A stretch of DNA of 64,000 nucleotides from Candidatus Woesearchaeota archaeon (GTDB lineage: Archaea; Nanobdellota; Nanobdellia; SCGC-AAA011-G17; JACPNG01), in NCBI GenBank assembly GCA_016185615.1, contig JACPNE010000008.1, positions 39,632-103,631 on the forward strand, written 5' to 3'. Below, piece by piece: positions 34,738 to 59,394 of this stretch. Under the pieces are notes generated by a model. That model was given only the letters and a program-made list of their open reading frames with translations. It did not search any database and was not told where the DNA came from. Each line of letters opens with the position of its first letter. Position 1 is the first letter of the stretch. Made by a program: the position numbers and the translations under genes.

Positions 34738-36531
34738 ATGAAAAAGAGGAAAGTGACAAAAGAGAAGGATTTGGGAATAAAAAAGGAGCTGTCAATACTA
34801 GCTGTATTAACCTTATTTTTAATCATCTTCTTTTTGATAAAGCCGGATTATACCGGATATGTTATCTATCAGCCAAGCAATTATAGCTGGAGCCTGGATA
34901 ATCCTTCTGATTATGTTTATGATTCTAATTTGATAAACATAAGTAACGGAGAAGCATCTTTAATTCCAATAATAACAATTGAATCATGGACAACAACAAA
35001 TGAGATTGGATATAATGTACAGCAAGCATTAAGTAATGGGGAAGACAAGACAGAAAAAGTTAATGCATTAGGTGATAATAAAAAACATAAAATAAAACAG
35101 GACAAGATATTTGATGTAATATTCGACGGGGATTTGGCAAATGAGGACATAATCAATATCTACATAAATGATGGAGATGGTTCTGATGTTTATTTATGCG
35201 ATGCCTCTTTGTCATGCTCATCCCCTGGTTATGGATTAGTTCATTTCAATGAGGATCAAGAAGGGATGTATAGCATAACAATAGCAAATCTTCCATCACA
35301 ATCAAATTCATTCTCTATAAATGTACAAAATGAGGTAGAGGTTGATTATATAAATGCAACCCATTTTGAGATAATAAATCATGAATCGACAAATATTACC
35401 TATCCAAACTCAGCATCATTAGAGACAAATGATATGGGATTAACAACCCCCCATATATTATTCAGTTCAGAATATATGGGAGAGATAACCTATGAATATT
35501 CAATAGATTCTGGAAACAGTTGGATTAGTATTCCGGAGAATAATATTTCATTTGATAATCAAAGTAATATAAGATTCAAAGCCAATTTGATTAGCGACGG
35601 ATTATCAACCCCAGTATTAAACAGTTTCGGGATAGATTATAATTCAGAAATATGTGAAGAGTCATGGGCATGCACAGAATGGAATGAATGCTCCCAGGAT
35701 ACAAAAACCATGGCAAGAATATGTACTGATGCAAACGTTTGCGGAACATTAACAATTAAGCCAGCAGAAACAATTGACTGCTTCCCGGATTATTATGATA
35801 TAGACAATATGGATATATTATCGATAGAAGCAAACAAATTGACAAAGATAAACAAGACAGATGTTGTTATAGACTTATTGACAACAGAGAATATAACCGG
35901 ATCAAGACTAACTATAGAATTATATGAAGAGCATAATAGCACTAAGCCAAAGCCATCATTGAAATTTGTAGATATCGAGGGTAATCAGTCATTGATAGAA
36001 TCATTAAACTCAACAAGCGTAAAGATTTATTATACAGATGAGGAAATAAAAAATCTTAATTTGTATGAGGACTCATTAAAAATATATTATTACAATGAGA
36101 ATTTATCAAGCTGGGAAGCCCTTGAATCAACAGTAAATACAGAAGAGAATTATGTTGAGGTTAATCTAACCCATTTTAGTACTTATGGGCTATTTGGGGA
36201 GAATATAGAGCAAGATAATCCTCCCCAAACATCAAGCTCAAGTAGTGGAAAGAAAAAAGAATCTGTTATAACAAATAATGTTGAGCAGCAAGAGCAAGAA
36301 AATGTAATAGAGAAAGATGTTAAAGAACAAGAAGAATCAACAATTTTTGAGCCTGAAAAAAGCGCACAAATAGAAGAAATATCCGAACAGCCATCTGAAA
36401 TAACGGGACAAGCAGCAAGAGAAATAAACAATCAGGACATGAGATTAGTTGTTGCAGCAATAATAATTTTAGCCATAGCCTCTGTATTCATGTTAAAAGA
36501 ATTATATCCATTTTCTAAGCTTAAAAAATAA
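34738..36531 (+). CDS. Large acidic cell-surface glycoprotein (PGF-pre-PGF/S-layer-like)
   Basis: TM with TGYVI, CEESWACTEWNECS...CTDANVCGT module, LKIYYYNE...W...LTHFSTYGLFG, ITGQA plus C-terminal TM, many N-x-S/T sequons. Confidence 0.8.
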   Translation: MKKRKVTKEKDLGIKKELSILAVLTLFLIIFFLIKPDYTGYVIYQPSNYSWSLDNPSDYVYDSNLINISNGEASLIPIITIESWTTTNEIGYNVQQALSNGEDKTEKVNALGDNKKHKIKQDKIFDVIFDGDLANEDIINIYINDGDGSDVYLCDASLSCSSPGYGLVHFNEDQEGMYSITIANLPSQSNSFSINVQNEVEVDYINATHFEIINHESTNITYPNSASLETNDMGLTTPHILFSSEYMGEITYEYSIDSGNSWISIPENNISFDNQSNIRFKANLISDGLSTPVLNSFGIDYNSEICEESWACTEWNECSQDTKTMARICTDANVCGTLTIKPAETIDCFPDYYDIDNMDILSIEANKLTKINKTDVVIDLLTTENITGSRLTIELYEEHNSTKPKPSLKFVDIEGNQSLIESLNSTSVKIYYTDEEIKNLNLYEDSLKIYYYNENLSSWEALESTVNTEENYVEVNLTHFSTYGLFGENIEQDNPPQTSSSSSGKKKESVITNNVEQQEQENVIEKDVKEQEESTIFEPEKSAQIEEISEQPSEITGQAAREINNQDMRLVVAAIIILAIASVFMLKELYPFSKLKK

Positions 36532-37441: not shown

Positions 37442-37765
37442 TTATTGATTAATCTCTCTCAGATGAATCAATCCTAATAAGAAAGTTAATGCTGCTATTG
37501 GGATTATCATAAGCTCTATTCCTATCAATAATGAATTAACAGGCAATGCATCAATGAAGTCATCAACAGCATTGAATATCCCGGCTGATAATAATGAATC
37601 AAAAGCAATTACAACTGCTATGAAGAACATTCCCATTAATATTAAGTTTATGACATCATTGGCCTTCTCATTCTCAAATCTCTTGGATCTTATTATCAAG
37701 AATATTGCAATTATGATTAATATTAATGATCCAAAGTTTAACCCAAACAATATTTCATCTATCAT
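37442..37765 (-). CDS. Three-TM membrane protein
   Basis: Hydrophobic 107 aa, ATGA-coupled to the upstream gene. Confidence 0.7.
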   Translation of the reverse strand: MIDEILFGLNFGSLILIIIAIFLIIRSKRFENEKANDVINLILMGMFFIAVVIAFDSLLSAGIFNAVDDFIDALPVNSLLIGIELMIIPIAALTFLLGLIHLREINQ

Positions 37766-39165
37766 ATTCCCAACTTTCTCCTTTGTGATCTTACTCTGTC
37801 TTTCTCTTGCTCAATTTTATCTTCTTGATCCTCTAATTCATCTAATCTGTCAAAATATTCTTTCTTTTTCTGCTTTAGTTTTTTCCATTCTTGCTCAATC
37901 TCTTTCTTTTCTTTGTTAATTTGATTCCTCATTGAGTTCAATCTGTCAATATTGCTCTCTATCCTGTTTTGTTTAACATCAAAGTCATTATAGATCTTCT
38001 TGTCTTTTTCAACTTTCTTTTTTAGTTCATCCAGCTTCTTTGCTTCCTGTTTAAGCTTGTCTTCTTGGCTCTTTAGTTTTTTAGCTGATTGGTCTAATTT
38101 ATATCTCTCATCTTCAACAAGGTCTTCCTTTGAATAAAGCTCATTTTCCTTCTTTATTATTGAATCTTCTCTCTCTTTCAATTTCATCCTTAGGCCATTA
38201 ATATATTCCTTGTCATCAACTATTGCTTCCTTGTCATCATACAATTTATCTTGTTCATCCCAAATTTTATCCCTTGTTTTTGTCAGCCTTTTTTCTTCCT
38301 TTTTGATGAACAATTTGTCATTCTCGACACTCTGTTTCAATGCCTCAATCCTCTTGGCTTCTGCATCCAGTTTTTGTTTTTGCTTTTCTATTCTCTTGTC
38401 TTCAGATTCTATCTTGAATTTTAAATCATCAATCTCCTCTTTCTTATCTTCTATCTCATCTTCTAAGTCCATAATCCTTTTCTCTCTCTCTTTTATTTTC
38501 TCAAGCCTTGGTCTTATACTCTTTTCTTCCTTCTCGAGCTTCTTTCTTTGATAGTTTATGTTTGATGCCTGCTCTTCCAATTGTTCTTTTTTATCCTCTA
38601 ACAAAAGCTTTTCTCTTTCAACCTCTCTTTCTCTTTTTCTTATGTTCTTCTTCTCTTCCTTTATCTTGTCAAACTTTTGATTCAACCCTTTCTCGCTGTC
38701 TTCTAACGCTTTCCTTTCTGCCCTTAATTTAACTTTTTGATTTTCTATAGCTTGTTTTTCTTTTTCTAGCCTTCTTATCTCAGGCATTAGAACTTTTCTG
38801 TCTATCTCATCCTTCAATGGATTTTCAACATTTGGATCCAATAATTGCTCAATCTGGAATCTTCTTTTTCTCTCATTTATCATTAACTCCTTACTAGAGT
38901 ATATAACAATGCCAAGAAGTATCAAAAATTGCAATCCAGACTGTATTGGCACCCTTATAAAATCCAAGCTAGGAAAGAATGATAATGCCCTTAACATGAA
39001 TACAACACCCAAAAGCAAGACAAATGTCAATAAATTTCTAACCCTAAATAAGCTGTCTTTTCCATTCCTCTTCAGATTAAACCATAAAAAAATAGCTATT
39101 AGGAATAATAATGCATAAATAAAACCCTGATAACTAGCTATATTATTTAAAGTTTCAAAGACCAT
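37762..39165 (-). CDS. Membrane-anchored long coiled-coil protein
   Basis: Three N-terminal TM helices, then about 340 aa of continuous K/E/D/R heptads. Confidence 0.8.
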   Translation of the reverse strand: MVFETLNNIASYQGFIYALLFLIAIFLWFNLKRNGKDSLFRVRNLLTFVLLLGVVFMLRALSFFPSLDFIRVPIQSGLQFLILLGIVIYSSKELMINERKRRFQIEQLLDPNVENPLKDEIDRKVLMPEIRRLEKEKQAIENQKVKLRAERKALEDSEKGLNQKFDKIKEEKKNIRKREREVEREKLLLEDKKEQLEEQASNINYQRKKLEKEEKSIRPRLEKIKEREKRIMDLEDEIEDKKEEIDDLKFKIESEDKRIEKQKQKLDAEAKRIEALKQSVENDKLFIKKEEKRLTKTRDKIWDEQDKLYDDKEAIVDDKEYINGLRMKLKEREDSIIKKENELYSKEDLVEDERYKLDQSAKKLKSQEDKLKQEAKKLDELKKKVEKDKKIYNDFDVKQNRIESNIDRLNSMRNQINKEKKEIEQEWKKLKQKKKEYFDRLDELEDQEDKIEQEKDRVRSQRRKLGI

Positions 39166-41775: not shown

Positions 41776-42654
41776 TTATGCATGCATCAATGTCTTCTCT
41801 AACGTAGAAGGAAGTATCTCACTAACATTGATAGGACCCTCAGAAATAGATACCAATTGATTTTCACCATTTTTAGTATCCCTCCCGTAAATTCTTTTAA
41901 ATGCTACTAATGTGTTTCGGAATTTATCATAAACTTTTCCTGGAGGTAATGGAATAAATGGTAAATTCTCATTAGGCTTGTATTCAACATGAATTGTCCT
42001 AACTAGTCCATCACCCCCATATTCTGCAATAACTCCCATACCCGCATTAGAATATGGTGTTGATTTTATCTGATAAGACTTAACAGGGTAGCCAGCCTGG
42101 CTGTAACCCACTGCAAGTCTTATTGCATTTCTTGTCTTTAATCCTATTCCCTCATCAGGATCGTCTGGATCAATCTCTTCTTTTGTTGATAAGAAGCCCT
42201 TTGGCAAATAATGACTAAATGAAATATCCTCTAATGATTTTATATTTGGATTAAATTCTCTTACCCTGGTAACTTTAAGATTCTTGCCATCAAAAACATA
42301 AGCACTTTCTCTTGCTTTTTTAGCCTGACCATTATGATTATTATCACCATTACGACTTTTGCCTATATATCTTAAAAGATCATGTTCATCATATATCTCA
42401 ACCATTGGGGGTATTACTTTGTCTAAAACTATCTTATCCTCTTTCAACCTCTTTGCTAAAACATCTCCATCCTCTAGAACTAAGAATCCATCAAGATGCT
42501 GATTTTCATTTCCCCCTTCCTCTATAAATTTGCCAAATCTTGAATCTAATCTTCCTCTAACTATTTTAGCATATTTTAACCATTCAGGAAGGTTATGTTC
42601 AAATTGATATAAACAAAGTGCCTTAAAAACGACACTTCTATCTATGTTTTCCAT
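41776..42654 (-). CDS. Hypothetical protein, possibly degenerate DisA_N/diadenylate-cyclase-like fold
   Basis: GFLVL, ESAYVFDG and GIGLKTRNAIRLA loosely follow the DGA and GxGTRHRAA spacing. Confidence 0.45.
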   Translation of the reverse strand: MENIDRSVVFKALCLYQFEHNLPEWLKYAKIVRGRLDSRFGKFIEEGGNENQHLDGFLVLEDGDVLAKRLKEDKIVLDKVIPPMVEIYDEHDLLRYIGKSRNGDNNHNGQAKKARESAYVFDGKNLKVTRVREFNPNIKSLEDISFSHYLPKGFLSTKEEIDPDDPDEGIGLKTRNAIRLAVGYSQAGYPVKSYQIKSTPYSNAGMGVIAEYGGDGLVRTIHVEYKPNENLPFIPLPPGKVYDKFRNTLVAFKRIYGRDTKNGENQLVSISEGPINVSEILPSTLEKTLMHA

Positions 42655-43744: not shown

Positions 43745-44196
43745 TGACTTCATTAAAAATATTGAATAATAAGGAAAAGAAAAAAATAATAGAATTAATG
43801 AAAAATTGTTATGGAATATCAGAAATAAAATTAGATTATGTTTTCATGAAGAATAAAGATGACAAAGTTTATTTATTAAGCAAAGACTTCAGCAAAATTG
43901 ATACAGATAATATAAGAATAAATTCTATTGGAATGTATTTTGCAAAATTATATCCAAACGGAATAAGGTTAAGCATAGAAGGATCTCAATTAATCGGGCC
44001 ACTTGCAAAGAAGAATGTATTGGAAGTTAATAATGATGAAGTAAAAAATTGGGTGAAGGGTTATGATATTTTAACAGATGAAAGATTCAATGGTTATGTC
44101 ATAATGAAAAATAATAATGATTATTTCGGCTCAGGATTTTACAGGGAAGGAAAAATAGAAAATATGATACCAAAAGACAGGAGAATCAAGAAGTAG
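43744..44196 (+). CDS. NIP7/PUA-like ribosome biogenesis protein
   Basis: RINSIGMYFAK...IRLSIEGSQLIG, WVKGYDI, NMIPKDRRI. Confidence 0.8.
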   Translation: MTSLKILNNKEKKKIIELMKNCYGISEIKLDYVFMKNKDDKVYLLSKDFSKIDTDNIRINSIGMYFAKLYPNGIRLSIEGSQLIGPLAKKNVLEVNNDEVKNWVKGYDILTDERFNGYVIMKNNNDYFGSGFYREGKIENMIPKDRRIKK

Positions 44197-44809
44197 ATTT
44201 TGAAAAATTACATCCTTTATTCAAGCAACAACTGCTGCATAATGGTTTTGTTTTGCATACGGTTTTTCCGTGCATAACAATCAATGCATGATATTCCTTA
44301 AATAAATCAGCATCTTTTTTCAAATTGTTCATAAATAGATTTTGTAATTCATCATAACTTTGTTCTTTAAATCCTAATCTATTAAATATTCTTTTTGTAT
44401 ATGTATCTATAACAAATATCGGTTGATTATAAGAATATAATAATATTGAGTCTGCTGTCTCTTTTCCGATTCCCCAGACATTAAGCAAATTTTCCCTGTT
44501 AATTTGTTTTTTTGAGTCAAGAAATTTGATAAACTCCTTTAGCTTCTTTGCTTTTTGGTTATGATAACCGGAACTTTTGATTATCATCGCTAATTTTTTA
44601 ACATTTATCTTTCTAATTTCTTCTTGAGATAACAAATTATGCTTTATCAGATTATCAAGAGCTTTCTCAACATTTATCCAGTTTGTATTTTGGGTCAGTA
44701 TAGCTCCCACTGAAATCTCAAATTTTTTTTTAGATGTTTTTGTAGGCCACCATTTTCTTGGACCATGCTCTTTTAATAGAATTCTGTATATCTCATCAAA
44801 TTCCAACAT
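44186..44809 (-). CDS. Endonuclease III-like HhH-GPD glycosylase with Fe-S cluster
   Basis: GAILTQNTNWINVEKAL, GIGKETADSILLY, FVIDTYTKRI, CKTKPLCSSCCLNKGC; start taken at MLEFDEIY. Confidence 0.92.
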   Translation of the reverse strand: MLEFDEIYRILLKEHGPRKWWPTKTSKKKFEISVGAILTQNTNWINVEKALDNLIKHNLLSQEEIRKINVKKLAMIIKSSGYHNQKAKKLKEFIKFLDSKKQINRENLLNVWGIGKETADSILLYSYNQPIFVIDTYTKRIFNRLGFKEQSYDELQNLFMNNLKKDADLFKEYHALIVMHGKTVCKTKPLCSSCCLNKGCNFSKSTS

Positions 44810-45272
44810 GGATACCATTTCCATATTTTTCGCTTGTATACTCATAAAATGTCTTTTTACCATGATAAGTATCACTATTATTAGTATCATATTCAGTAAC
44901 TCTAAGTTCAGCAATTACTAATCCTGATTGTCTTGGAATAGTTAGATGATAAACATCACGAGTTATAGATACTAAAGGAATTTCATTTTCTTTTGCAACG
45001 ATAACCTCACTCATCTCTTGGCCAAGCCAATTAACAGCAATAAGTTCTAATGCTCCGGATAATACTAAAAAATCTTCTGGATCTTTAGACAAATCTAATC
45101 CTTTATGAAAATGATCTGCTCCGCGACTACCATGTGAATATTTGCCCAAAAGTATATCTTTTAATGGTCTCTGTTTAAATTTATCGATCTTATGACATAA
45201 ATTAAATAAGGATTTTCCATTACCATTATAATTAGGGATTATTATCTTAGTCTCTACACCTTCAATAACCAT
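44796..45272 (-). CDS. Hypothetical protein
   Basis: 158-aa ORF overlapping the glycosylase start. Confidence 0.55.
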   Translation of the reverse strand: MVIEGVETKIIIPNYNGNGKSLFNLCHKIDKFKQRPLKDILLGKYSHGSRGADHFHKGLDLSKDPEDFLVLSGALELIAVNWLGQEMSEVIVAKENEIPLVSITRDVYHLTIPRQSGLVIAELRVTEYDTNNSDTYHGKKTFYEYTSEKYGNGIHVGI

Positions 45273-45309: not shown

Positions 45310-45717
45310 TTATATTTCATCTTTAATTAACAGATATAATAATATAATCCCGCCAATTGTTATAAAACTATCAGCTATATTAAATGCAGGCCAAAAGCCA
45401 AAATCAATAAAATCTCTTACATATCCAAAGAAAATTCTATCTATTAAGTTCCCAATTGTTCCGCTGAGAATAAAGCCAAGTCCATAAACAGCATAATTAT
45501 TTTTTATAACAAACAGATAATAAGAAATAATTACTAAGACAACAATTGAAATTAAGATTAATAACAAATTATATCCTTTTAATATACCAAATGCCGCTCC
45601 CGTATTCTCAACATAATTCAATCTGAAAAATCCAAAGCTAAAATCAAATAATTTAGAATAGAATTTAGTCAATTGGTCAATTATGACAATTATTATGATA
45701 ATTATCCAAGATCTCAT
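45310..45717 (-). CDS. lspA: Signal peptidase II (lipoprotein signal peptidase)
   Basis: IDQLTK, NTGAAFG, GNLIDRIFFGYVRDFID, FNIAD with both catalytic Asp residues. Confidence 0.93.
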   Translation of the reverse strand: MRSWIIIIIIVIIDQLTKFYSKLFDFSFGFFRLNYVENTGAAFGILKGYNLLLILISIVVLVIISYYLFVIKNNYAVYGLGFILSGTIGNLIDRIFFGYVRDFIDFGFWPAFNIADSFITIGGIILLYLLIKDEI

Positions 45718-45902
45718 ATAACTTTTTTTATTGATTCTTCAATCCTTTCAATTCTTGCATTCAAGTTCTCTAGCCTAGCGTTTATCAGATCAAGCTTACT
45801 TAAAACAATCTCAATGTCTCTTTCGTCATAACTGGATTTCCCATAGAACTTGTCCTCTATCTTTGGCTCTTCTTTTTTTCTGAATAGACTAAAAGGCCAC
45901 AT
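45714..45902 (-). CDS. Small coiled-coil protein
   Basis: DIEIVLSKLDLINARLENLNARIERIE; overlaps both neighbours. Confidence 0.75.
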   Translation of the reverse strand: MWPFSLFRKKEEPKIEDKFYGKSSYDERDIEIVLSKLDLINARLENLNARIERIEESIKKVI

Positions 45903-46396
45903 TATTTTGTACTCCTCAAATTTAAGAAAGCCTTCGCTTGGTTAAATACATCATATGTCTCTGCCCTTAATTCCGCAGAATATTTCTCTATCTTTGTACT
46001 TAGAATATAATGATCATATACTGCCCTCACAAATTTAAGGAAGAAATTCTTCTCCCACCTGTCTTCATAATCTTTTTCGAGAAAAGACTCAAATTTTATG
46101 CTACAAACCCCTCTGCAGGCTATACAATCTTTTAATTGTACATCCTCAACATCATTCAATTTTAGTCTTACTTCTATATGGAATTTTGTATAATCATCAA
46201 CTTTCCTTTCTGCTTCCCACTTTATAGAATCGCTTTTTTCTCCGCCTTCTTTCATACTATCGATATATTCTTTTTCATAGAAATCATAGTTATGCAGATC
46301 AAACCAAGATTTTAATAATTTATACAGATCAGCAAAATTGAAGATTGCTTTTTGCTCTATCCTCAATGCTGGAATTACATAATCTATCTCTGACAT
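45902..46396 (-). CDS. Uncharacterised protein, paralogue 3 of 3
   Basis: FNFADLYKLLKSWF...YDFYEKEY...RKVDDYTKFHIEV...DYEDRWEKN. Confidence 0.85.
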   Translation of the reverse strand: MSEIDYVIPALRIEQKAIFNFADLYKLLKSWFDLHNYDFYEKEYIDSMKEGGEKSDSIKWEAERKVDDYTKFHIEVRLKLNDVEDVQLKDCIACRGVCSIKFESFLEKDYEDRWEKNFFLKFVRAVYDHYILSTKIEKYSAELRAETYDVFNQAKAFLNLRSTK

Positions 46397-46432
46397 GATA
46401 TTGCAATGTTTGGTTTATTTTTAATTATTTCG

Positions 46433-46915
46433 CTATGTATAAACATTAAGAAACTCCTTTATCTCCTCTACTAAACCATAAAACTTATCATATAAATCAA
46501 CTTTATACTCCTCAATCCTCTTTTTTATGATAAATCTTTCATAAATTTCCATGAAATAGCTCTGTTTCCCTGTCCTCTCCAATGCCGCGCTCATCCTTAT
46601 ATCAAAATCTGCCCTCTGCAGCTTTATTTTTTTATCATCCTTTTGTATCTCGACATCTCTTAGTCCAACAAATATAAAAGTCATAGTTATCACATAGATA
46701 ACGTCTGTGCTTTTATTCTTCCTGCAGTCCCATGTAAACTCTATTTTCTTTGCTCCTCCCGGAAGTATTGTTTCTATATACTGCTTTTCATTAGTATCTC
46801 TCCAATAACCATTAAATTCAAGCCATCTTTTCACCCACCTATAGAATTCAGATGTATCTAAAATCCCAATATGCCTTATCCTAATTGATGGTGCTACAGT
46901 AATTCTCCTAATCAT
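46433..46915 (-). CDS. Uncharacterised protein, paralogue 2 of 3
   Basis: GILDTSEFYRWVKRWL...EKQY...IEFTWD...IYERFIIKKRIEEYKVDLY. Confidence 0.85.
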   Translation of the reverse strand: MIRRITVAPSIRIRHIGILDTSEFYRWVKRWLEFNGYWRDTNEKQYIETILPGGAKKIEFTWDCRKNKSTDVIYVITMTFIFVGLRDVEIQKDDKKIKLQRADFDIRMSAALERTGKQSYFMEIYERFIIKKRIEEYKVDLYDKFYGLVEEIKEFLNVYT

Positions 46916-46929
46916 AAACTAACCTCTCT

Positions 46930-47445
46930 TTATTGTCCATAATTATGAAGATAAAGTCCCATTATCTCTTTTACATTATTATGCAATCCTATCAAATCTA
47001 CATATAACTTGGCTTCATACTCTCCTTTTATTTTATCTTTAATGATGTAATTATTGTAAATTAAATTGAAGAATCTTGCCATAAAATTTCTGTTCCACCT
47101 GTTTTTATAGTCTAAATACAAATAAGCTTTAAAATTAATGTCTATAAATCCCTTATCAAGAGTTCTGTTCTTTATTTTTACCTTCTCCATCTCTATTATA
47201 AAAAGAAAAACATCAATATGAAATCTTACATAGCCATCAATATCCCTGTCAGACTTCATTCCAATCATAACTTCATAACCTTTATCCTTGGTTTTGCTCT
47301 GTGTTTCAGTTAATTGGAAGATATAATTTCTGTCTTCAACATATCTTTGTATTGACTTTATCAAATCTTTAAGATCGTATATTCCTCTTCTCTGTATCCT
47401 GATTCCACTGCTGGACATTATCCAATGCTGTCCCCTCTTTATCAT
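46930..47445 (-). CDS. Uncharacterised protein, paralogue 1 of 3
   Basis: GIYDLKDLIKSI...YIFQL...RDIDGYVRFHIDV...DYKNRW...IYNNYIIK...YEAKLY. Confidence 0.85.
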   Translation of the reverse strand: MIKRGQHWIMSSSGIRIQRRGIYDLKDLIKSIQRYVEDRNYIFQLTETQSKTKDKGYEVMIGMKSDRDIDGYVRFHIDVFLFIIEMEKVKIKNRTLDKGFIDINFKAYLYLDYKNRWNRNFMARFFNLIYNNYIIKDKIKGEYEAKLYVDLIGLHNNVKEIMGLYLHNYGQ

Positions 47446-47526
47446 AATAATAAAGTTATGTCCTAAATTAATAAATCTTTCTTAATTTAAAAAAACCTTT
47501 ATAAGATATAAAATTCTAATAATAAA

Positions 47527-49053
47527 ATGGCTAATAATCTATTTACAGAATTGTTTTCTCCAGCAGGAAAAAAAGTTGAGAAAGTAGAAGACATGTCCGT
47601 AGATGAGATAAAAAAAGAAGCTTATGATAGATCAGATCCAGTTGATTTTCTTAAAAAAGCTGTTGATAAGATAAAAGATATAAATAAGAAAAGGCAAGTG
47701 AGAGAAATCCTTATATCAGAGATAAAAAACAAAGGAAAGGGTGTAGAATATTTTCTTGGTTATGATTCAATCTCAGAAGGATTAGAGCCAGTATATTTTT
47801 GGATACTAGATTTCTTAAGAAACAGACCACCCGCAGGATTAGGATTTGAAGTCGACAAGACAAAAGAAGATTTTGAAGCTTCAGTTGGTTCAGCTTTCTA
47901 CGGAGACATCGGCTCAAGGGCAACAAGGATGCAGGAGCAAGCAATGAAGATGCTTGGAACAATCAATACTGTTGTGAGAAGCATGATAAATCTTATTTAT
48001 GATCTAAAAGAGTTCAAGATTAGATTAGAGACTTATGATGAATTAAAATCTCAAGATCCAGATAAGAAAAAAGCAGCCAAGCTTGGATTAAAACAAGTTT
48101 GGCTTGATAATGTAGACATAAAAAGAGGCAGGGGAGCAATACATTCATTGTCACAACAGCTTAACTTTGTCACAATAAGGGATGCTTTCTTATATGCAGA
48201 TAGTATAAAACAAGTTAATTCAATGGATTTGAATGACAGAGTCAAGAGAATATTAATTCCTAGATTAGAAGAATATCAAAAATGGGAAGAATATTCTGAA
48301 AGGGAATTAAGAAAAAGATTCAATATAGAAAGATCTTATCTAAAATCACAGGTAGCGTCATTAAAACTATATGCTGACTGGACAAAGCCATATTTGATAG
48401 CAGCCCAAAAACTTGGGATGAAGGATTTTAAAAGTCCACATATAATTTCTGTATTCAACAATATGGAAATTCATTTATCAATGTTCGGAAAGAAATTGAT
48501 AAACATACAAGATATGATAGACTCGAGAGAGCTTCCTGAAAGAGCAGAGTCAAATGCAAAGTATTATGCATGTGTTGAAGTGGAAATAATGTTCAGAAGT
48601 GTTCCTTATGGTGTAAGGCAATCCCAAACAGGGGTTCAGTACACCCAAGGTGGAAGATCTGAAGCAAAAATAAGGTCTTATGTTTTTAAGGAAGATGATT
48701 TAAAATATTTAAAGGAGCAGGAATTATTCGAGGGATTAGAATTAGTTGATGAGATAGCAGGAACTGCACTAAGGGAGATACATGATGATTTACAGGAATT
48801 TATAAGAGATGAGAAAAGAGAAGAAAAAAAAGAGAAAACTACCCCTATAGTAAAATCTATTTATCAAGCTACAAAGGATTTGACTGTCCCGATTAAGGAT
48901 ACCATTGATATATTCAGGGATTTATTAAAAATTGAACTGTCAGATGAATTTATAGAATCAGAAATGAAGAAAAAAGCTGCTGGAACAGCAGCTGGGAGTG
49001 CATTTACTCTGTATGATGTTTATAAAAAAGCTCATGGAATGTTAAGCTGGTGA
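47527..49053 (+). CDS. Uncharacterised 508-aa mostly helical protein
   Basis: Long ORF divergent from the paralogue triplet; LEPVYFWILDF, LKQVWLDNVD, YDVYKKAHGMLSW. Confidence 0.85.
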   Translation: MANNLFTELFSPAGKKVEKVEDMSVDEIKKEAYDRSDPVDFLKKAVDKIKDINKKRQVREILISEIKNKGKGVEYFLGYDSISEGLEPVYFWILDFLRNRPPAGLGFEVDKTKEDFEASVGSAFYGDIGSRATRMQEQAMKMLGTINTVVRSMINLIYDLKEFKIRLETYDELKSQDPDKKKAAKLGLKQVWLDNVDIKRGRGAIHSLSQQLNFVTIRDAFLYADSIKQVNSMDLNDRVKRILIPRLEEYQKWEEYSERELRKRFNIERSYLKSQVASLKLYADWTKPYLIAAQKLGMKDFKSPHIISVFNNMEIHLSMFGKKLINIQDMIDSRELPERAESNAKYYACVEVEIMFRSVPYGVRQSQTGVQYTQGGRSEAKIRSYVFKEDDLKYLKEQELFEGLELVDEIAGTALREIHDDLQEFIRDEKREEKKEKTTPIVKSIYQATKDLTVPIKDTIDIFRDLLKIELSDEFIESEMKKKAAGTAAGSAFTLYDVYKKAHGMLSW

Positions 49054-49737
49054 TTAACCTAAAAATATCCTTAAATTTTCATTCATAGGGGGCTTTCTTA
49101 ATTTTTTTATTGCTTTATTTTCCGTCTGTCTAACAGCTTCCCTACTAATATTTAAATAGTCTCCGACTTTATCCAAAGTCATAAGTTCTTTTTGGGATGT
49201 GATGTATCTACTTCTTATTTTATGTATTTCTCCAGTACCATCATCTATACCATATCTTAACCTAATAACCATTTGGAGATCAGACGGTAAATTGGATATT
49301 GACTTTTCAAGCGTGTCATTTAACTCATTCTTTTCGTTAAACTTTCCTTCATCTAGATTAACAGAAGGCAATAATTTTTTATCAATTCCTGTTAATGAAA
49401 TTAATTCAATCTTTGATATTTTTCTATCAACAACTCTTTTTGTTAATTTAACATCTCTCAACTCTACGGGGAATACTTCATCCTCACACATTGGAATTCC
49501 ATTAGCAGTATAAAAATCACAGATCATAAATCTATGTTTTTCAGTAGGGTATTCTCTCATACACTCATAAGCGTTATAAGCTACAGGATAAATTCCTATT
49601 TGTTTAGCTGCTTCTATTTGTTTTAATCCCAATTTCTCTCTAGCTTTAACTAAAGCAGCATTCTTCAATCTAGCTTCTACTCTAACCTCAAAATTCTCGC
49701 CTATTTCGCTATATTTATCCATAAAAAGATTAATCAA
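49054..49737 (-). CDS. XRE-type HTH fused to sigma70 region 4
   Basis: LVKAREKLGLKQIEAAKQIGI...YE; LPSDLQMVIRLRYGIDDG...MTLDKVGDYLNISREAVRQTENKAIKKLRKP. Confidence 0.85.
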   Translation of the reverse strand: MINLFMDKYSEIGENFEVRVEARLKNAALVKAREKLGLKQIEAAKQIGIYPVAYNAYECMREYPTEKHRFMICDFYTANGIPMCEDEVFPVELRDVKLTKRVVDRKISKIELISLTGIDKKLLPSVNLDEGKFNEKNELNDTLEKSISNLPSDLQMVIRLRYGIDDGTGEIHKIRSRYITSQKELMTLDKVGDYLNISREAVRQTENKAIKKLRKPPMNENLRIFLG

Positions 49738-49824
49738 AACTAGATTATAAATCTTACGATTCTTGATTATCTCTCAGTAGTAAAAATTAATATTATGTTT
49801 AATTTTAAATTTGTAAGTATGATT

Positions 49825-50325
49825 TTATGTTAACTTTTCAAGTTTTATCTCATTTTCATAAGTTAAATTTTCTACTTTAATTCCATCTTCAAATGCCTCG
49901 GGATGATTAATCAAATCCTTAAGGCCTTTAATTAATTCCTTAGTAAAATGAAATAATTTTTTATCATATCTAAAAAACGGTGTTATTATCCTATATGAAT
50001 CCCCATCTATAAATTTATAATTATAAGGAAAGACAACTTCTCTTTGATCTAAAGAGATATCTGGATTTAAAGTTATAGCATTATATATTATTAAAGTATA
50101 TTCATTTTTATCTGATACGAATAAAGCGGCATGTGCCAAATAAAGTTTAGATAGATCTAAAAATAATTTAGATTGTTCTAGTTTTTTAGATTCTACGACA
50201 GCTAAGTCTTTATTTTCAATTGCAGATGAAAGAATAAAATAATTAATCGCTATTTTAGCCTCTAAAGAGTGTATATACAAATCAGTAAGATTTTTTATTT
50301 TGTTGGTTGTGAACTCTATAGTCAT
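49825..50325 (-). CDS. Hypothetical protein
   Basis: 166-aa AT-rich ORF. Confidence 0.55.
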   Translation of the reverse strand: MTIEFTTNKIKNLTDLYIHSLEAKIAINYFILSSAIENKDLAVVESKKLEQSKLFLDLSKLYLAHAALFVSDKNEYTLIIYNAITLNPDISLDQREVVFPYNYKFIDGDSYRIITPFFRYDKKLFHFTKELIKGLKDLINHPEAFEDGIKVENLTYENEIKLEKLT

Positions 50326-50402
50326 ATAAAAATAGATTATGCAACAAGTTTATAACCCTAACTACTAACAATATTTATAAGTTATAAATTCTTTAATATT
50401 TA

Positions 50403-50801
50403 ATGTCAGAAGAAGAGAAAAATAACAAGAAGAAGCAAGAAAAAGAAGAAACAATAGATGATTTAGTTGAAACTGCAGAGGTTATCAATACAAGACCAAC
50501 AATATTAAGCGAGGAAGAAAATAAAACAGAACAAGTAGAACAGCAAAGATTCATCTCAAGAAATGATTCATTGGAAGATACTGCAGCAGAATCTCCTGCT
50601 CCAAGAAGGGAAACAATAGATTATGATCCAATAACTCCTCAACTAAGCCCTCTAAATACAAGGGATGAAGAAGATAAAGTCGACTTAAAATATCATCCTG
50701 AGAAACTTTATGAACCCAAATATTCTCATGACAAGATAGGAGAAAAGAAAGAAGAAAAAAAGGAAAAAATTTATACAACAAAGAGGGAGATAATCTCATA
50801 A
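50403..50801 (+). CDS. Acidic, probably disordered protein
   Basis: E/K/P/T-rich 132 aa, 1 nt before the TIM-barrel gene. Confidence 0.7.
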   Translation: MSEEEKNNKKKQEKEETIDDLVETAEVINTRPTILSEEENKTEQVEQQRFISRNDSLEDTAAESPAPRRETIDYDPITPQLSPLNTRDEEDKVDLKYHPEKLYEPKYSHDKIGEKKEEKKEKIYTTKREIIS

Positions 50802-50802
50802 G

Positions 50803-52689
50803 ATGGTAGATATGTTTTTTGATAAATATAAGGGAGCAATGGACTCTAAGTATTATATTCCAAGTGGATCATTTGCCTCTACAACAAATCCACAGACAGC
50901 AAATCAGATAGCTGAAGCTACCCAGAAATTAAATGCTGGAGTTATGGGAATAGATATTTCTCAAATTAGTCCAGATATATTCCAAAGTATTCCTAAAGAG
51001 CATTTTACTGAGATAGGAAGATTGACAAAATTAACTGGAGCTGAGGTTGATCTACATGCTCCTGTACAAGATATGGATCCAGCAGGATTCTCAAGGGAAG
51101 GATGGAGTGAACAAAAGAGATTAGAAGTCCAAAGACAATTTGAAGATGCCTTAGAGAAAGGACATTTATTGGATCCAAAAGGAAACATTCCAGTTAACTT
51201 TCATGCTTCTGGGGGTGTTCCTGGAAAAACATGGAGAGATATTAAAAAAGAAGACTTGAATAAATTTGTAGATAAAAAAGAAGCTGAGAGGGCCATCAAA
51301 AATAATATGAAGATTGAAGATACAATGGGAATAGTCAACCAAGAAACTGGACAACTACAACAATTAAGATATGATGTAAGAAAAGGTTTTGGTGGAAAAG
51401 ATGAGATATGGACTCCTGAGAGAAGGAGAAAGTCATTAAACTTAACAGAATGGGAGAGGGGAAATCTACAATTATTCACATTACAAAAAGAAAAAGCAGA
51501 GATACAAGAAAGATTGATTAATCAGCAAGCAGGCATTGGGCCAATAAGGGATAGAATAGAAAAAGGACTTCATTTGTCTGACCAACAAAAGGAAGAGTTT
51601 AGTATGATACAAAGCAGGATTAATTCATTACAATCGCATATAGATGAGATTGAAAGGAATATTGGGACTCAATTGATTGATATAAATGATAAAGTAAAAA
51701 AATATTCCCCAAGAGCATTAAATGATGAACAAAAATCAGCAAAAGAAATGTTTGATAGAGAGACTAATAATCTAAATCATATAAATAATGAATTAAGGAA
51801 GATGATAGATAGCGGAAGATATCCAAGAGAGGTAATTGCAAAGAAATGGAAAGAGGTTGATGAAGAGGAAAAAAGGATTTATGATAGGGTAGTATCGACA
51901 CTCTCAAGATTACCAATTCCAGAGGTCTGGAAATCAACAGATGATTTCTCTAAAGAAAAAACAGCGCAAACCGTAGCAGATGCAACATTTGAAGTCTACA
52001 AAAAATATGGAAGTAATTCTCCAACTACAGTTGTTGAGAATATCTTTCCAGAATGGACCATATCAAGAGCTGAAGATTTAAAGGAGACAATAGAAAAAAG
52101 CAGAAAAATATTTGCTGAAAAATTATCGAAAGAAAAACATATTTCAATGGATGAAGCTAAAAAAGTAGCTTCTAAACACATTGGGGTTACATGGGATGTT
52201 GGACATATTAATATGTTAAGAAAGCAAGGATTTACAGAACAAGAGATAATTCAGGAAGCAAAGAAAATTGCTCCATTAGTAAAACAAGTCCACCTTACAG
52301 ACAATTTTGGATTTAATGATGTGCATTTGCCAGCAGGAATGGGAAATGTCCCAATTGAAGGACAATTAAAAGAGCTACAAAAAAAAGGTTTCAAGATAGA
52401 AAAAGGAAGATTAGTTCATGAGGGCGGGGGCTGGTGGCAACACTTCAAGACAGATCCTGTTGTAGAAGCAATGGGTAATCTAGATACGCCATTATATCCA
52501 ATGGAATCAGAGCCAAGATGGGGGTATATGAGAGATACAGAAGGGGTCTATAAATATGGATTTGGGGATATTCTTCCAGAAATGCACTTCAAAGATTTGT
52601 ATGGTGGAGGATTCTCGACATTGCCAAAAGAACTTGGCGGACAAGTTGGTGGAGATAGATCCAGATTTACCGGAACACCAAACCAGTAA
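50803..52689 (+). CDS. Xylose-isomerase/AP-endonuclease-2-like TIM-barrel metalloprotein with large coiled-coil insertion
   Basis: LHAP, NFHAS, VVEN, TWDVGH, VHLTDNFGFNDVHLPAGMGNVP, VHE metal-ligand pattern. Confidence 0.85.
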   Translation: MVDMFFDKYKGAMDSKYYIPSGSFASTTNPQTANQIAEATQKLNAGVMGIDISQISPDIFQSIPKEHFTEIGRLTKLTGAEVDLHAPVQDMDPAGFSREGWSEQKRLEVQRQFEDALEKGHLLDPKGNIPVNFHASGGVPGKTWRDIKKEDLNKFVDKKEAERAIKNNMKIEDTMGIVNQETGQLQQLRYDVRKGFGGKDEIWTPERRRKSLNLTEWERGNLQLFTLQKEKAEIQERLINQQAGIGPIRDRIEKGLHLSDQQKEEFSMIQSRINSLQSHIDEIERNIGTQLIDINDKVKKYSPRALNDEQKSAKEMFDRETNNLNHINNELRKMIDSGRYPREVIAKKWKEVDEEEKRIYDRVVSTLSRLPIPEVWKSTDDFSKEKTAQTVADATFEVYKKYGSNSPTTVVENIFPEWTISRAEDLKETIEKSRKIFAEKLSKEKHISMDEAKKVASKHIGVTWDVGHINMLRKQGFTEQEIIQEAKKIAPLVKQVHLTDNFGFNDVHLPAGMGNVPIEGQLKELQKKGFKIEKGRLVHEGGGWWQHFKTDPVVEAMGNLDTPLYPMESEPRWGYMRDTEGVYKYGFGDILPEMHFKDLYGGGFSTLPKELGGQVGGDRSRFTGTPNQ

Positions 52690-52731
52690 GTAATATTTAT
52701 AAAACAGAGAATATTTTATTTAAAAGAAGGG

Positions 52732-53523
52732 GTGAGTATGGAACAAAAATATAACAAGCAAAGGATTGATATTTCTTATGACTTTGCTGTAAAAGCTTAT
52801 CAAAAATTTAACAAAGTAATAAAGTCAATAGTTCTTTTCGGCTCTTCAGCAAAACATTTAGCGGAGGAAAAATCTGATATTGATATTATTGTTATTGTCG
52901 ATGACTGCTCAATCCAATGGGATGAAGAATTAGTTGCTTGGTATAGACAAGAGATGGGCACTTTAGTTGCATCATTAAAATATCCTAAAAAACTTCATGT
53001 TAATACTGTAACATTATCAGCATTCTGGAATCAGATGATTACAGGAGAGCCTGTTGTAATAAATGTAATAAGATATGGGATTCCATTAATTGATTTCGGG
53101 GGCTTTTTTAATCCATTAAAAGTATTATTATCAAAAGGAAGGATAAGGCCAACTCCAGAAGCAATTTATAATGCATTAAACAGGGCTCCAATGCATTTAG
53201 CAAGAGCAAAATTTAGCATATTATCATCAATGGAATCAGTATACTGGGCAATGGTAGATTCTGCACATGCAGCTTTAATGTCAGCCAATGTTGCTCCTCC
53301 TTCTCCAGAGCATATTGATATTATGTTAAAGCAGCATTTTGTAAAGAAAGGAATGCTGAAACAGAAATATGTGGATTGGTATAAAGAAGTCTATGCTTTA
53401 GCCCATTATGTAAGCCATGGAGAGGTTGCTGATCTGGATGGAAAAGAAATCCAAGAATTCAGAGATAAAGCAGATAAGTTTGTTGGAGAGATGGCTGCTT
53501 TGGTTAAAAATTTAGAAGAATAA
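52732..53523 (+). CDS. Minimal nucleotidyltransferase fused to HEPN domain
   Basis: IVLFGSSA...SDIDIIVIVDD; YWAMVDSAHAALM...HFVKKG HEPN-like C-terminus. Confidence 0.85.
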   Translation: MSMEQKYNKQRIDISYDFAVKAYQKFNKVIKSIVLFGSSAKHLAEEKSDIDIIVIVDDCSIQWDEELVAWYRQEMGTLVASLKYPKKLHVNTVTLSAFWNQMITGEPVVINVIRYGIPLIDFGGFFNPLKVLLSKGRIRPTPEAIYNALNRAPMHLARAKFSILSSMESVYWAMVDSAHAALMSANVAPPSPEHIDIMLKQHFVKKGMLKQKYVDWYKEVYALAHYVSHGEVADLDGKEIQEFRDKADKFVGEMAALVKNLEE

Positions 53524-57363: not shown

Positions 57364-59394
57364 TTATTCCATTAAAGAATTTTTAATTATATCATAAACT
57401 TTGGGGTATCTGTCTATATCTAACATTTTTACATGTAATGTCTCTAAACCTCGGCAATTTCCATCAATGAAAAAATTCTTAGCATTCTCTAATTCTGCAT
57501 TTTCTGATAAAACCACCCCATCTCCATCCTCTCCATCCATCAAGCATCCTGTTCCAATAATATTATATGTATCTATCTCTGGAGTTTCTCTTGTATTAAG
57601 CTTATTTATAAATAAGCTGTTTGAACTCATATCTCTGCATTCAAGCTCTCCGCCTATTAATGAGCAATAATCTGCAGCATCCCCAGTTATTCCTTTATTT
57701 GGAGAACCAATCATTATTAGTTTGTCAACATTATCAGAACCAAATAATTGTAGATATCTTCTTACAACTAATCCTCCCATGCTATGTGTTATAATATTGA
57801 CTTTTGGCTTTCCAGTTTTAATTTTTATATTATCTATTATCTCTCTTAATCTTATAGAGTAAGTCTCAATATTTTCACTCTTTACTTGGACTACAACATA
57901 ATTTTCCGGCTCCTTAAAAACATCAAGATAGTAACTTGCTTTAATGCTTACTGGGGCTCTTATTAAACCCCATGCTCCTGGCTTGGTGTCATCTATATTA
58001 TATAATGAAATTGAGCCAGCATTTATATAACCATCATTAGCTAATCTTTTTTGTATTTTGTTGAAAGCATCCAAGCTATAATCAGCAGCCAAATCTTGGT
58101 TAATTGCATGTCCATGAATAAATACAACAGGAAAATATAATTCATTATTTATACACTCTTCAGTAATACAGCAGCTTTCACAATTATTATAAGCACAGCA
58201 CAATGGTAAAGGCTCTTCTAATTTAGCATCAATTGTTTTATTAGATAAATCTACTAATATTTTGCTTAGGTTAAATTCCTCTACATTAATAAAGCTGGAA
58301 TTAAACTGATTATTAGTTTGATTCTCAAGCTCCTTATTAAATCTATTAAAAATTATTTGTGATTCTTCTGACAAATTGTTAACGATTGGGTTTATCTCTG
58401 TTATGCTTGTTTCATTATTGATTATTCTAGAGGCAATATTAAAATTATTTATAATATAATTCAAATCTGAAGCTTGTGTCTCATTTAATGATTGTAAATT
58501 GATATAATGATTTATATTATTTCTTACATCAACTAAATTCTCAATAATATTGTTATAAGAGATAACTACATCTGATAAGTATAAAAATATATTAAATGAT
58601 TCATCATCAGCTGCATTTGTATTGTTATTTATCTCATCAAATTCCTCTTTAGATATTTGATAATTGTTATCATTCATTACATTTTGTAAATTTATTATTT
58701 TAGACTCAGAATCTAAAATTAATTGTTTAATTTTAGTAATATTTTCTATATTCTCAATCAAAATCCTATTTTCTAATTCATCCCTCAAATTTTCCATATA
58801 TTCAACTCTTGAGACTATATCTTCTAATTTCGTTTTTGTAAGATTAAAATTTCCTAGAATATACTCTTCTATCTCTTTCTCATCTTGGCTTAAAGAGTAG
58901 TCTACAGTTACAAGAACGTCTCTTGAGGTTAATCCTTCCTCATCTGTATGGCAAAATATTGTATTTACACCCCTGCATTCAATGCTATAAAGATATAATT
59001 TCTGTCCCCTTCCAAATTTATCTATCTGTATCTCAAATTCCTCCAATAAAGGATTTGTTGGAGTTAATGTAAAATTATGATTACTTAGAATTAAACCACT
59101 GCTTATATCAATAAATTTTGATTCGCATAACGCGCTGCAAAAAGGATTTGTTGTTACACTAGATTCAAAGGTTATGTTTTCTTTTTGCCCTTTCTCCAGA
59201 AAAATATTTTCTTTGCTGGATTCAAGCTTTATTATTATATCATTTCCCAGGATAAAATTAACATATAAAAAGATCTTAGCCCCGAAAAGCATTAATAGTA
59301 TTACAACTACAGCTATTATTGAGATGAATAATGTTCTATTTTCTTTTATCCATAAAAAGAATCTTTCTTTCAATCCCTTAATCTTGGATGTCAT
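57364..59394 (-). CDS. Membrane-anchored extracellular alpha/beta-hydrolase (lipase-like) on a helical stalk
   Basis: N-terminal TM; PVVFIHGH, ITHSMGGLV, IGSPNKG, DGDGVV, LH catalytic pattern; Cys cluster. Confidence 0.85.
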   Translation of the reverse strand: MTSKIKGLKERFFLWIKENRTLFISIIAVVVILLMLFGAKIFLYVNFILGNDIIIKLESSKENIFLEKGQKENITFESSVTTNPFCSALCESKFIDISSGLILSNHNFTLTPTNPLLEEFEIQIDKFGRGQKLYLYSIECRGVNTIFCHTDEEGLTSRDVLVTVDYSLSQDEKEIEEYILGNFNLTKTKLEDIVSRVEYMENLRDELENRILIENIENITKIKQLILDSESKIINLQNVMNDNNYQISKEEFDEINNNTNAADDESFNIFLYLSDVVISYNNIIENLVDVRNNINHYINLQSLNETQASDLNYIINNFNIASRIINNETSITEINPIVNNLSEESQIIFNRFNKELENQTNNQFNSSFINVEEFNLSKILVDLSNKTIDAKLEEPLPLCCAYNNCESCCITEECINNELYFPVVFIHGHAINQDLAADYSLDAFNKIQKRLANDGYINAGSISLYNIDDTKPGAWGLIRAPVSIKASYYLDVFKEPENYVVVQVKSENIETYSIRLREIIDNIKIKTGKPKVNIITHSMGGLVVRRYLQLFGSDNVDKLIMIGSPNKGITGDAADYCSLIGGELECRDMSSNSLFINKLNTRETPEIDTYNIIGTGCLMDGEDGDGVVLSENAELENAKNFFIDGNCRGLETLHVKMLDIDRYPKVYDIIKNSLME

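Follow-up and report, generated by a model that had tools for sequence, protein, structure and literature searches.

Endonuclease IV (Nfo) is a compact barrel of ~285 residues and, together with MJ1311, belongs to the xylose-isomerase-like TIM-barrel superfamily. A passage of PMC2770678 describes nine residues as important for EndoIV catalysis, E261 being named among them, and in Table 1 of that source MJ1311 stands as the EndoIV homologue predicted for M. jannaschii. The type VII toxin-antitoxin system MntA/HepT pairs a minimal nucleotidyltransferase (MNT) with a HEPN protein and is encoded by two genes that are patchily distributed and mobile. KA1 domains are known from MARK, SAD, Chk1 and AMPK as well as from TUT1 and METTL16. 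In the part of PMC5467268 that deals with them, the KA-1 domain of TUT1, a nucleotidyltransferase (NTase) of the Pol-beta type, is described as its RNA-binding module, and the KA1 domain of MARK-3 is described as binding phospholipids. Bacterial lipoprotein signal peptidase II (LspA) works after Lgt. For the archaea, a passage of PMC12462473 (2025) states that no Lsp homologue was known and that their lipoprotein signal peptidase has yet to be discovered, AliA/AliB being proposed for archaeal lipidation. Proteins that bear comparison with all of these are encoded side by side at positions 45310-53523 of a 64,000-nucleotide window of DNA from a Candidatus Woesearchaeota archaeon, and it is this region that we describe here.

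The region is made up of two modules inherited vertically, together with an insertion of recent date, and is not one machine. Module 1, on the plus strand, is a four-gene operon encoding p508 (47527-49053), a class-wide protein of 508 residues without a known family; a small acidic coiled-coil protein (dis132, 50403-50801); an Endonuclease IV-like enzyme (tim628, 50803-52689); and a nucleotidyltransferase of the fused MNT-HEPN-like kind (mnt263, 52732-53523). Module 2, on the minus strand, is a tandem array of paralogues of a small α/β protein of predicted KA1/TBP-like topology, referred to here as the trio, in which members of the A/B type (parA, 46930-47445, and parB, 46433-46915) come first and a member of the C type (parC, 45902-46396) comes last. 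Both modules are ancient, and they stand back to back; the class to which they belong comprises Woesearchaeota, Pacearchaeota and Nanoarchaeota. The families of p508 and of the trio are undescribed, and a literature search returned no paper on either. Judged by their sequences, the two enzymes belong to known superfamilies and are undescribed forms of them, the one being Endo IV-like but interrupted by a large insert and the other a fused MNT-HEPN-like protein in which the RNase motif is not conserved and the pattern of conservation is that of a housekeeping gene. Our preferred reading, held tentatively and at a probability of about 0.3, is that the locus encodes a scaffolded phosphoesterase and nucleotidyltransferase pair that acts on nucleic-acid ends, probably those of RNA, and for which the KA1-like proteins would serve as binding adaptors.

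The genome from which the window comes (G000; labels beginning with G denote genomes and those beginning with L fetched loci) is 0.67 Mb in size and 86% complete. Its nearest relative is G012, and the relatives' source names are Woesearchaeota, Nanoarchaeota or Nanoarchaeia. A sequence-only reading of this stretch had described its open reading frames (ORFs) at 45310-53523 and an 81-nucleotide divergent spacer, and had recognized three paralogues of ~165 residues, an intact LspA, an insert-bearing TIM barrel and a fusion of an NTase with a helical domain. All of these are present in the ORF list and in the analyses that follow. The same reading held that relatives recur in Woese- and Pacearchaeota and that the genes form a lineage-specific core, and both statements are borne out: matches were found in the relatives' genomes, with p508 in 297 of 301 class genomes and the trio family in 109 of 111. 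The p508 count comes from a profile search of genomes at least 80% complete, sampled evenly over the phylum and all of one class, and becomes 295 of 299 when two unpublished genomes (G270 and G271) are left aside; the four genomes without a match are 93-97% complete. A search with the single protein gave p508 in 39 of 41 relatives and in all 22 high-quality genomes. The trio count, also from a profile search, refers to genomes at least 90% complete, which mostly hold three matches each; the smallest genomes hold one, and the small f48 genomes keep one copy. An AP_endonuc_2 match within a frame of at least 511 residues, the hallmark used here for the long enzyme, was found in 60 of 61 genomes at least 95% complete (a count made from the listing), G044 being the sole miss. 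We regard p508, the trio and the long Endo IV-like frame as core genes of the class that have been inherited vertically. That no function could be named for any of the core genes, as the sequence-only reading had it, stands for p508 and the trio, neither of which is recognized by a family model of Pfam, NCBIfam, PHROGs or PADLOC, and no longer stands for the TIM barrel, which is assignable to the Endonuclease IV-like branch of a known superfamily, or for the NTase, likewise a member of a known superfamily. The same four collections hold no family for cc62, dis132 or p166, and no family recurred when all 56 relatives of p508 and all 32 of the trio were scanned against Pfam.

Gene order was compared at p508 loci from 20 genomes of the same order, with ~8 kb on each side, and from 20 genomes of other orders, with ~9 kb on each side, loci cut by contig ends being counted as misses. 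The succession of p508, coiled-coil protein and TIM barrel is retained, the enzyme sharing the strand of p508 and lying downstream of it in 16 of 20 loci of the window's order and in 18 of 20 loci of other orders; an NTase follows downstream in 13 of 20 loci of each set. Both p508 and the enzyme were present in 34 loci and are encoded on one strand in every one of these; no more than 1.3 kb separates them in 33, and in 27 the gap is filled by a single same-strand ORF for a charged coiled-coil protein of 112-257 residues. This gap gene (X200), in many copies of which a motif resembling L..P.ER(I/L)K.LKE is seen at the N terminus, is represented in the window by dis132, whose 132-residue product is acidic (pI 4.8) and of low complexity and whose stop abuts the start of tim628 (end 50801, start 50803). 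One locus, L024, carries a 5-kb insertion between p508 and the enzyme, which includes an ORF (L024:5822-6880, minus strand) that resembles, by eye, a C5 cytosine DNA methyltransferase.

The surroundings of this core differ between orders. Trio members occur near p508 in 11 of 20 loci of the window's order, nine of them with all three, vs 1 of 20 loci of other orders, and lspA lies within 8 kb of p508 in 17 of 20 vs 1 of 20. Recurrent flanks within the order are glutamyl-tRNA synthetase (GluRS, 10 of 20), a PUA protein (10 of 20) and phosphoenolpyruvate (PEP) synthase/pyruvate phosphate dikinase (PPDK, 9 of 20). In other orders, the genes upstream of p508 on the same strand are for a CRS1/YhbY (CRM) protein in 12 of 20 loci and an NFACT-R protein in 11 of 20; an example of the pair directly upstream of p508 is found at L051:10637-10897 and L051:10920-11774, on the minus strand. 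Twenty further loci from other orders were examined around the trio, the paralogues of which are in tandem there too. A protein of ~620 residues is adjacent to the trio, or within a few genes of it, in nine of these 20 loci (L054:9171-11039, minus strand; L055:3625-5493, plus strand; and seven more). Its core matches the mnt263 profile, and mnt263 matches its profile in turn (E 4.8e-42, positions 177-424), such that its middle part consists of an NTase and helical core between N- and C-terminal extensions that are not recognized. This longer form was not found in G000. With p508 next to mnt263 and the trio next to the ~620-residue protein, the KA1-like and NTase families are therefore neighbours at two loci. 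Also found near the trio in other orders are a CBS-domain protein (8 of 20 loci), an Obg-like GTPase, TruD and adenylate kinase.

The idea of a single contiguous machine, put forward in the sequence-only reading, does not survive these comparisons. Between p508 and dis132 stand two minus-strand genes, sig227 (49054-49737, 227 residues) and p166 (49825-50325, 166 residues), and among all the fetched loci homologues of sig227 occur only in those of G000 and G012 and p166 only in that of G000. They therefore represent a recent insertion into the operon, in which p166 is an orphan ORF. The product of sig227 has an N-terminal HTH_3 domain and a sigma-70 region 4 (E 3.2e-11), region 2 is not present, and it is predicted to be a regulator rather than a sigma factor. 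The linkage to lspA is, as seen above, restricted to the order. The same reading had suggested an envelope, division or host-interaction role, and nothing at the locus points specifically there.

The enzyme tim628, of 628 residues, is predicted to be an Endonuclease IV-like three-metal phosphoesterase. The Pfam family AP_endonuc_2 matches only residues 453-530 (E 5.2e-10, 39.9 bits against a cut-off of 31.1), because the barrel is split by an insert: a variable coiled coil of ~270 residues (~140-405, between H134 and E412) separates this part from the rest. A conserved C-terminal tail of ~85 residues adds a further difference from the compact Nfo. Its best relative in the PDB is MJ1311 (3wqo; E 7.6e-14), which matches both halves of the barrel. 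Eleven residues are invariant in 17 relatives of tim628, namely H85, H134, E412, D465, H468, H497, D500, N501, D506, H508 and E540. The E. coli nfo gene product carries H69, H109, E145, D179, H182, H216, D229, H231 and E261, which we take to be the nine catalytic residues referred to above and the ligands of the three metals. The corresponding nine positions are invariant as H/H/E/D/H/H/D/H/E in the relatives of tim628. By hhalign and hmmsearch, D465, H468, H497, D506 and H508 correspond to D179, H182, H216, D229 and H231 of Nfo; the remaining four, H85, H134, E412 and E540, were matched to Nfo only by their order and by local motifs (NFH..G vs NFHPG; V(V/I)EN). Alignment of tim628 with the single Nfo sequence by hhalign gave a probability of just 0.8%, and no nfo model of NCBIfam matches tim628 at E≤0.1. 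The ESM Atlas returned only proteins of its own kind and a cluster from Aenigmatarchaeota at 0.91, and literature searches returned no paper joining Woesearchaeota with endonuclease IV and a single one that mentions MJ1311.

About two-thirds of the 61 class genomes also hold a canonical, full-length AP_endonuc_2 protein of ~240-330 residues (E 1e-23 to 1e-37). Since the long and the canonical short forms coexist, the long form is a separate, retained paralogue. The notion that tim628 is the sole AP (apurinic/apyrimidinic) endonuclease of the lineage holds in G000, where it is the only AP_endonuc_2 protein and where, at 86% completeness, no gene of the Xth type (Exo_endo_phos) was found; it fails across the class, in which the canonical paralogue is so common.

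The last gene of module 1, mnt263, encodes a protein of 263 residues, in which a minimal Pol-beta NTase domain (residues 21-67; Polbeta 7.6e-8 and NTP_transf_2 1.3e-7 in Pfam) is followed by a helical C-terminal half. In an alignment of 13 sequences the motif GS...DxD (G37, S38, D49 and D51) is invariant, as are YW..D..H.AL (Y171, W172, D176, H179, A181 and L182) and PP.P.H (P189, P190, P192 and H194) in the helical half. The combination of a GS...DxD domain with a helical domain is shared with MntA/HepT, and the differences are considerable: mnt263 is one fused chain, single-copy, conserved across the class and fixed in its position in the operon, and no conserved Rx4-6H RNase motif, a feature of the toxin-antitoxin system, was seen when the 13 sequences were read by eye. 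No HEPN family of Pfam matches at E≤0.1. The sole pointer to HEPN is the name 'nucleotidyltransferase/UPF0332 family' given to relatives by JGI (Joint Genome Institute), UPF0332 being, as we assume, HEPN. Sequence matches in the PDB cover the N-terminal part only (9xbd_E, 6.9e-4; MntA, 5yep; kanamycin nucleotidyltransferase, 0.017). Among the genes of the cluster mnt263 is the most conserved, with 92% identity to its orthologue in G012 vs 73-74% for p508 and tim628, and of 7999 proteins scored with a profile of the family, 5114 matched at E≤1e-3.

Two other readings were considered and rejected. One takes mnt263 for the CCA-adding enzyme: the archaeal CCA model TIGR03671 and PF09249 (tRNA_NucTransf2) both gave no match in the incomplete G000, but PF09249 is found in 30 of 30 relatives, and the gap is most likely one of assembly. 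The other is anti-phage defence or phage origin of the genes, for which PADLOC gave only generic NTase and sigma region-4 matches and PHROGs nothing relevant. ARAGORN found only 23 tRNA genes in G000, several of odd length or with an unassigned anticodon. G000 also encodes a second, stand-alone Pol-beta-type NTase of 265 residues (L074:1620-2417, minus strand, = G000:C5), which is not matched by the mnt263 profile and is flanked by genes for aldehyde dehydrogenase and aspartate/ornithine carbamoyltransferase.

The trio proteins parA (171 residues, pI 9.5), parB (160 residues, pI 9.2) and parC (164 residues) share 24-30% identity and are paralogues by BLASTP (E 9e-26 for the proteins of 164 and 171 residues, 4e-15 for those of 164 and 160, and 8e-8 for those of 160 and 171). 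A maximum-likelihood tree of 79 trio proteins shows a deep split between a C-type and an A/B-type clade (support 98/97), the former made up of parC and the last genes of the arrays of other orders and the latter of parA, parB and the first genes of those arrays. Within the order, an A clade (100/99) and a B clade (100/99) can be told apart. The agreement of this deep split with the order of the genes in the arrays implies that at least two paralogue types, and the gene order itself, predate the radiation of the class. The existence of at least two ancient paralogue types in a fixed order is as expected for a hetero-oligomer, and such an assembly of the three paralogues is plausible; a prediction of the parA, parB and parC complex, run without controls, gave scores of 0.32, 0.30 and 0.28 vs a mark of 0.32, which speak neither for nor against binding. 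A profile search placed the family in 2052 of 1.84 billion representative clusters, and the best 150 representatives are stand-alone proteins of 137-211 residues. No fused or longer forms of the family were found, which is weak evidence.

The model of parC (pLDDT 85.2, pTM 0.76) has the topology β-α-β-β-β-β-α-α, with strands of 11-19 residues. Foldseek against the PDB gave no match at E≤1e-3, the best being to START/Bet v 1 proteins (E 1.7e-3, TM 0.2-0.3). With VIA-align, for which a best Z of 7-8 is typical of models without true relatives and values in this range are common for unrelated models, parC matched, near the top of the list, the KA1 domains of SAD-B (Z 8.8, root-mean-square deviation 2.6 over 91 residues), Chk1 (8.7), AMPK (8.4) and MARK3 (8.0), the KA1-like RNA-binding modules of the METTL16 VCR (8.3 and 7.8) and TUT1 (6.9), and also Bet v 1-like and TBP-like proteins (6.6-8.2). 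On the basis of this model, the trio is likely to be of the KA1/TBP-like fold class. As modelled, it has the β-α-β-β-β-β-α topology of the KA1 domains of MARK/SAD/Chk1/AMPK and TUT1/METTL16, and differs from them in being stand-alone, in the much greater length of its strands, in its long C-terminal helix, and in showing no sequence similarity. The SRPBCC/START/Bet v 1 helix-grip proteins (VIA-align Z 7-8) are likewise built on an antiparallel sheet around which a long helix from the C terminus is packed; they have more strands than the trio and superpose on it with a TM of just 0.2-0.3.

The model of p508 (pLDDT 77.9) points in a similar direction. Its elements β71-81, α87-98, β108-118, β313-324, β346-366, β369-388 and α389-426 make up a KA1-like sheet core that is split after the second strand by a helical hairpin of ~170 residues (126-295), with extra helices at the N and C termini. 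In the consensus of its relatives the C terminus carries the nearly invariant motif YDVYKKAHGMLxW. VIA-align gave Z 8.5 with the SAD-B KA1 structure and otherwise only coiled coils of a generic sort and bundles of three helices, such as syntaxin Habc, SMC and Snf7, whose Z of at most 10.8 is below the tool's meaningful level for helical models; Foldseek found no match in the PDB at E≤1e-3 and the ESM Atlas no usable one. In an hhalign comparison, residues 305-430 of p508 are collinear with trio residues 46-161 in keeping with the shared topology, although the alignment is not significant. Profile-profile comparison of full-length p508 with the trio gave a probability of 1.3%, and the other parts of p508 gave E 0.29 and 0.24 (residues 60-125) and 0.16 (the helical middle, 126-299). 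From the structure we infer that p508 may belong to the trio family as its fourth member, one whose core has been split.

These properties can be brought together in a mechanism. The NTase of module 1 would add a nucleotide and the Endo IV-like enzyme would hydrolyse a phosphoester, the pair working on nucleic-acid ends, most likely those of structured RNA, either in end healing and tailing or in a cycle of writer and eraser. The coiled coils of p508, of the small acidic protein and of the tim628 insert would provide the scaffold, and the trio, together with the split p508 core, would as KA1-like modules be the substrate-binding or localizing adaptors. LspA would perform ordinary cleavage of lipoprotein signal peptides, as a neighbour and not as a subunit. 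We lean towards RNA because the recurrent neighbours are genes of RNA metabolism and translation (CRS1/YhbY, NFACT-R, GluRS, PUA, TruD and the Obg-like GTPase) and because in TUT1, itself a Pol-beta NTase, RNA is bound through a KA-1 domain.

Several observations weigh against this reading. Within the trio, parC is acidic (pI 5.4), and basic residues are not prominent among the conserved charged columns. The hhalign comparison of the C-terminal domain of p508 with the trio is not significant (E 0.0025, 11.8%; larger alignments E 0.0071, 5.4%). The fold matches of the trio are middling and are shared with lipid-binding folds, and the KA1 domain of MARK-3 binds phospholipids. The Nfo-type site argues equally for DNA and RNA, and an Nth-like glycosylase is encoded nearby. 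Neither PF05670 (NFACT-R_1) nor PF01985 (CRS1_YhbY) was found in the 86% complete G000, and the two are therefore not obligate partners. Finally, with housekeeping genes as neighbours, the synteny may in part reflect an order that was simply inherited and no functional link.

Taken to its conclusion, this last point would leave no common function at all, the genes being unrelated, lineage-specific housekeeping genes kept in an ancestral order by small and slowly rearranging genomes. We consider this unlikely. The flanks are indeed syntenic housekeeping genes (GluRS, PUA and PEP synthase/PPDK, at the frequencies given above), and insertions are tolerated, that of sig227 and p166 after p508 in the window and that of 5 kb in L024. 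Such an account does not explain why the adjacency of p508, coiled-coil protein and enzyme is kept across orders (18 of 20) while every other neighbour changes, why the association of KA1-like and NTase families is met at two separate loci, or why the stop of dis132 and the start of tim628 abut. If a common function is accepted, DNA base-excision repair presents itself, with tim628 as an AP endonuclease/3'-diesterase and p508 and the coiled-coil protein as lineage-specific accessory factors. In its favour, the nine-ligand signature of Nfo is kept, tim628 is the only AP_endonuc_2 protein in G000, where no Xth-type gene accompanies it in the 86% that is assembled, and an HhH-GPD glycosylase is encoded at 44186-44914 and near the cluster in five loci of the order. 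Repair is nevertheless quite unlikely in our judgement, given the canonical paralogue that stands beside the long form in about two-thirds of the 61 genomes, the failure of every NCBIfam nfo model to match at E≤0.1, and recurrent neighbours that are RNA and translation genes rather than repair genes. To these may be added that PF1383, an Endo IV-like protein of P. furiosus, showed no AP endonuclease activity according to a passage of PMC2770678.

A membrane or envelope machine tied to lipoprotein maturation is suggested by the company that lspA keeps in the window. The trio and p508, the latter through a C-terminal amphipathic helix, would bind acidic lipids and act with LspA on lipid-anchored surface proteins. 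The gene lspA is divergent from p508 in 17 of 20 loci of the order and forms one tight operon with the trio and cc62; the trio matches include lipid-binding folds of the START/Bet v 1 kind, MARK-3 KA1 is described as a phospholipid binder in PMC5467268, the C-terminal motif of p508 is nearly invariant, and G000 encodes ~4 convincing lipobox candidates. Outside the order this association dissolves: lspA adjoins p508 in 1 of 20 loci, the trio is near p508 in 1 of 20, and a hidden Markov model scan found lspA within 5 kb of the trio in none of the 19 mapped loci of other orders (L068 was not mapped). LspA was, moreover, not found in 11 of 111 genomes, all 11 of which, the small f48 genomes included, have a trio-family match. 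No signal peptide or membrane-spanning stretch was seen in p508 or the trio when their translations were read by eye, without a predictor, and the Endo IV-like enzyme and the NTase would be left unexplained. We therefore think such a machine unlikely. The preferred reading, of an enzyme pair with KA1-like adaptors at RNA ends, can also be extended. In a bolder form, p508 and the three paralogues would be four diverged KA1-like members of an essential, class-specific core that recruits NTase paralogues (mnt263 and the ~620-residue protein) and an Endo IV-derived 'eraser' for a cycle of nucleotidylation and de-nucleotidylation on RNA or protein; this extension is distinctly speculative, and we hold it to be improbable.

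The remainder of the minus-strand operon merits description in its own right. The genes from lspA to parA overlap or lie 14-36 nucleotides apart, and an AT-rich spacer of 81 nucleotides (47446-47526) separates parA from p508; a TATA-like tttataag read from the sequence ~25 nucleotides ahead of the p508 ATG may mark a putative promoter there. In the window's order module 2 is followed by cc62 (45714-45902), which encodes a coiled coil of 62 residues and overlaps lspA by 4 nucleotides, and by lspA itself (45310-45717, 135 residues). The latter is a lipoprotein signal peptidase II of bacterial type, matched by Peptidase_A8 over positions 1-141 of the 142 of the profile (E 6.9e-34) and by TIGR00077 (74.5 bits, cut-off 73.95). 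The motifs GNLIDR and FNIADS, which presumably hold its two catalytic Asp residues, are present in the translation. LspA was found in 100 of 111 class genomes, and the same Pfam model matched in none of four archaeal control genomes. Unlike its bacterial counterpart, which works after Lgt, this LspA is encoded by an archaeon in which Lgt (PF01790) was not detected at 86% completeness of G000, and the lipobox candidates mentioned above are those found among 760 crude genes. For cc62 the only domain match is a weak one to FlaC_arch (E 0.08). By tblastn, homologues of cc62 adjoin lspA in L013, L014, L015, L018 and L031 and, more weakly, in L021 (E 2.3e-4); blastp of ORFs adds L025, and L007 is a shorter fetch of the L018 place.

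Some further features of the window may be recorded. The HhH-GPD/Nth-like glycosylase, which lies 400 nucleotides beyond lspA on the minus strand, has an ORF that, when read from a TTG start, overlaps the upstream ORF of a WbuC-like cupin by 119 nucleotides (44186-45272, minus strand, for the two); its true start is probably further in, as relatives align only from residue ~35. A protein of 676 residues (57364-59394, minus strand) has a lipase/alpha-beta-hydrolase domain in only its last ~170 residues, the first 400 being unrecognized. No Pfam family was found for proteins of 597 residues (34738-36531, plus strand; E≤0.01), 467 residues (37762-39165, minus strand; E≤0.001) and 292 residues (41776-42654, minus strand; E≤0.001). 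The source DNA was found in 16 sequencing runs, all of them groundwater or soil metagenomes and none an RNA run.

The genes described here are among the few retained by nearly every genome of a very large, uncultivated radiation of tiny, symbiotic archaea in spite of extreme reduction (0.5-2 Mb). According to a passage of Castelle et al. 2021 (PMC8204110), 51 families are common to Pace- and Woesearchaeota and, as a set, specific to them, and most of these are of unknown function. The families described here are probably among the 51 to which that passage refers. Of the four protein families, two are unnamed, lack a Pfam model and have no relative of solved structure. A function for them would cover a common part of metagenomic dark matter, as illustrated by the 2052 trio clusters and 5114 NTase proteins. 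The presence of LspA in 100 of 111 class genomes bears, in addition, on the open question of the archaeal lipoprotein signal peptidase. To learn what a fused MNT-HEPN-like NTase and an Endo IV-type active site do together would close a gap in what is understood of DPANN core biology and, if the bolder form of our reading were true, a four-member KA1-like core with a nucleotidylation cycle would be a housekeeping system not described in any organism.

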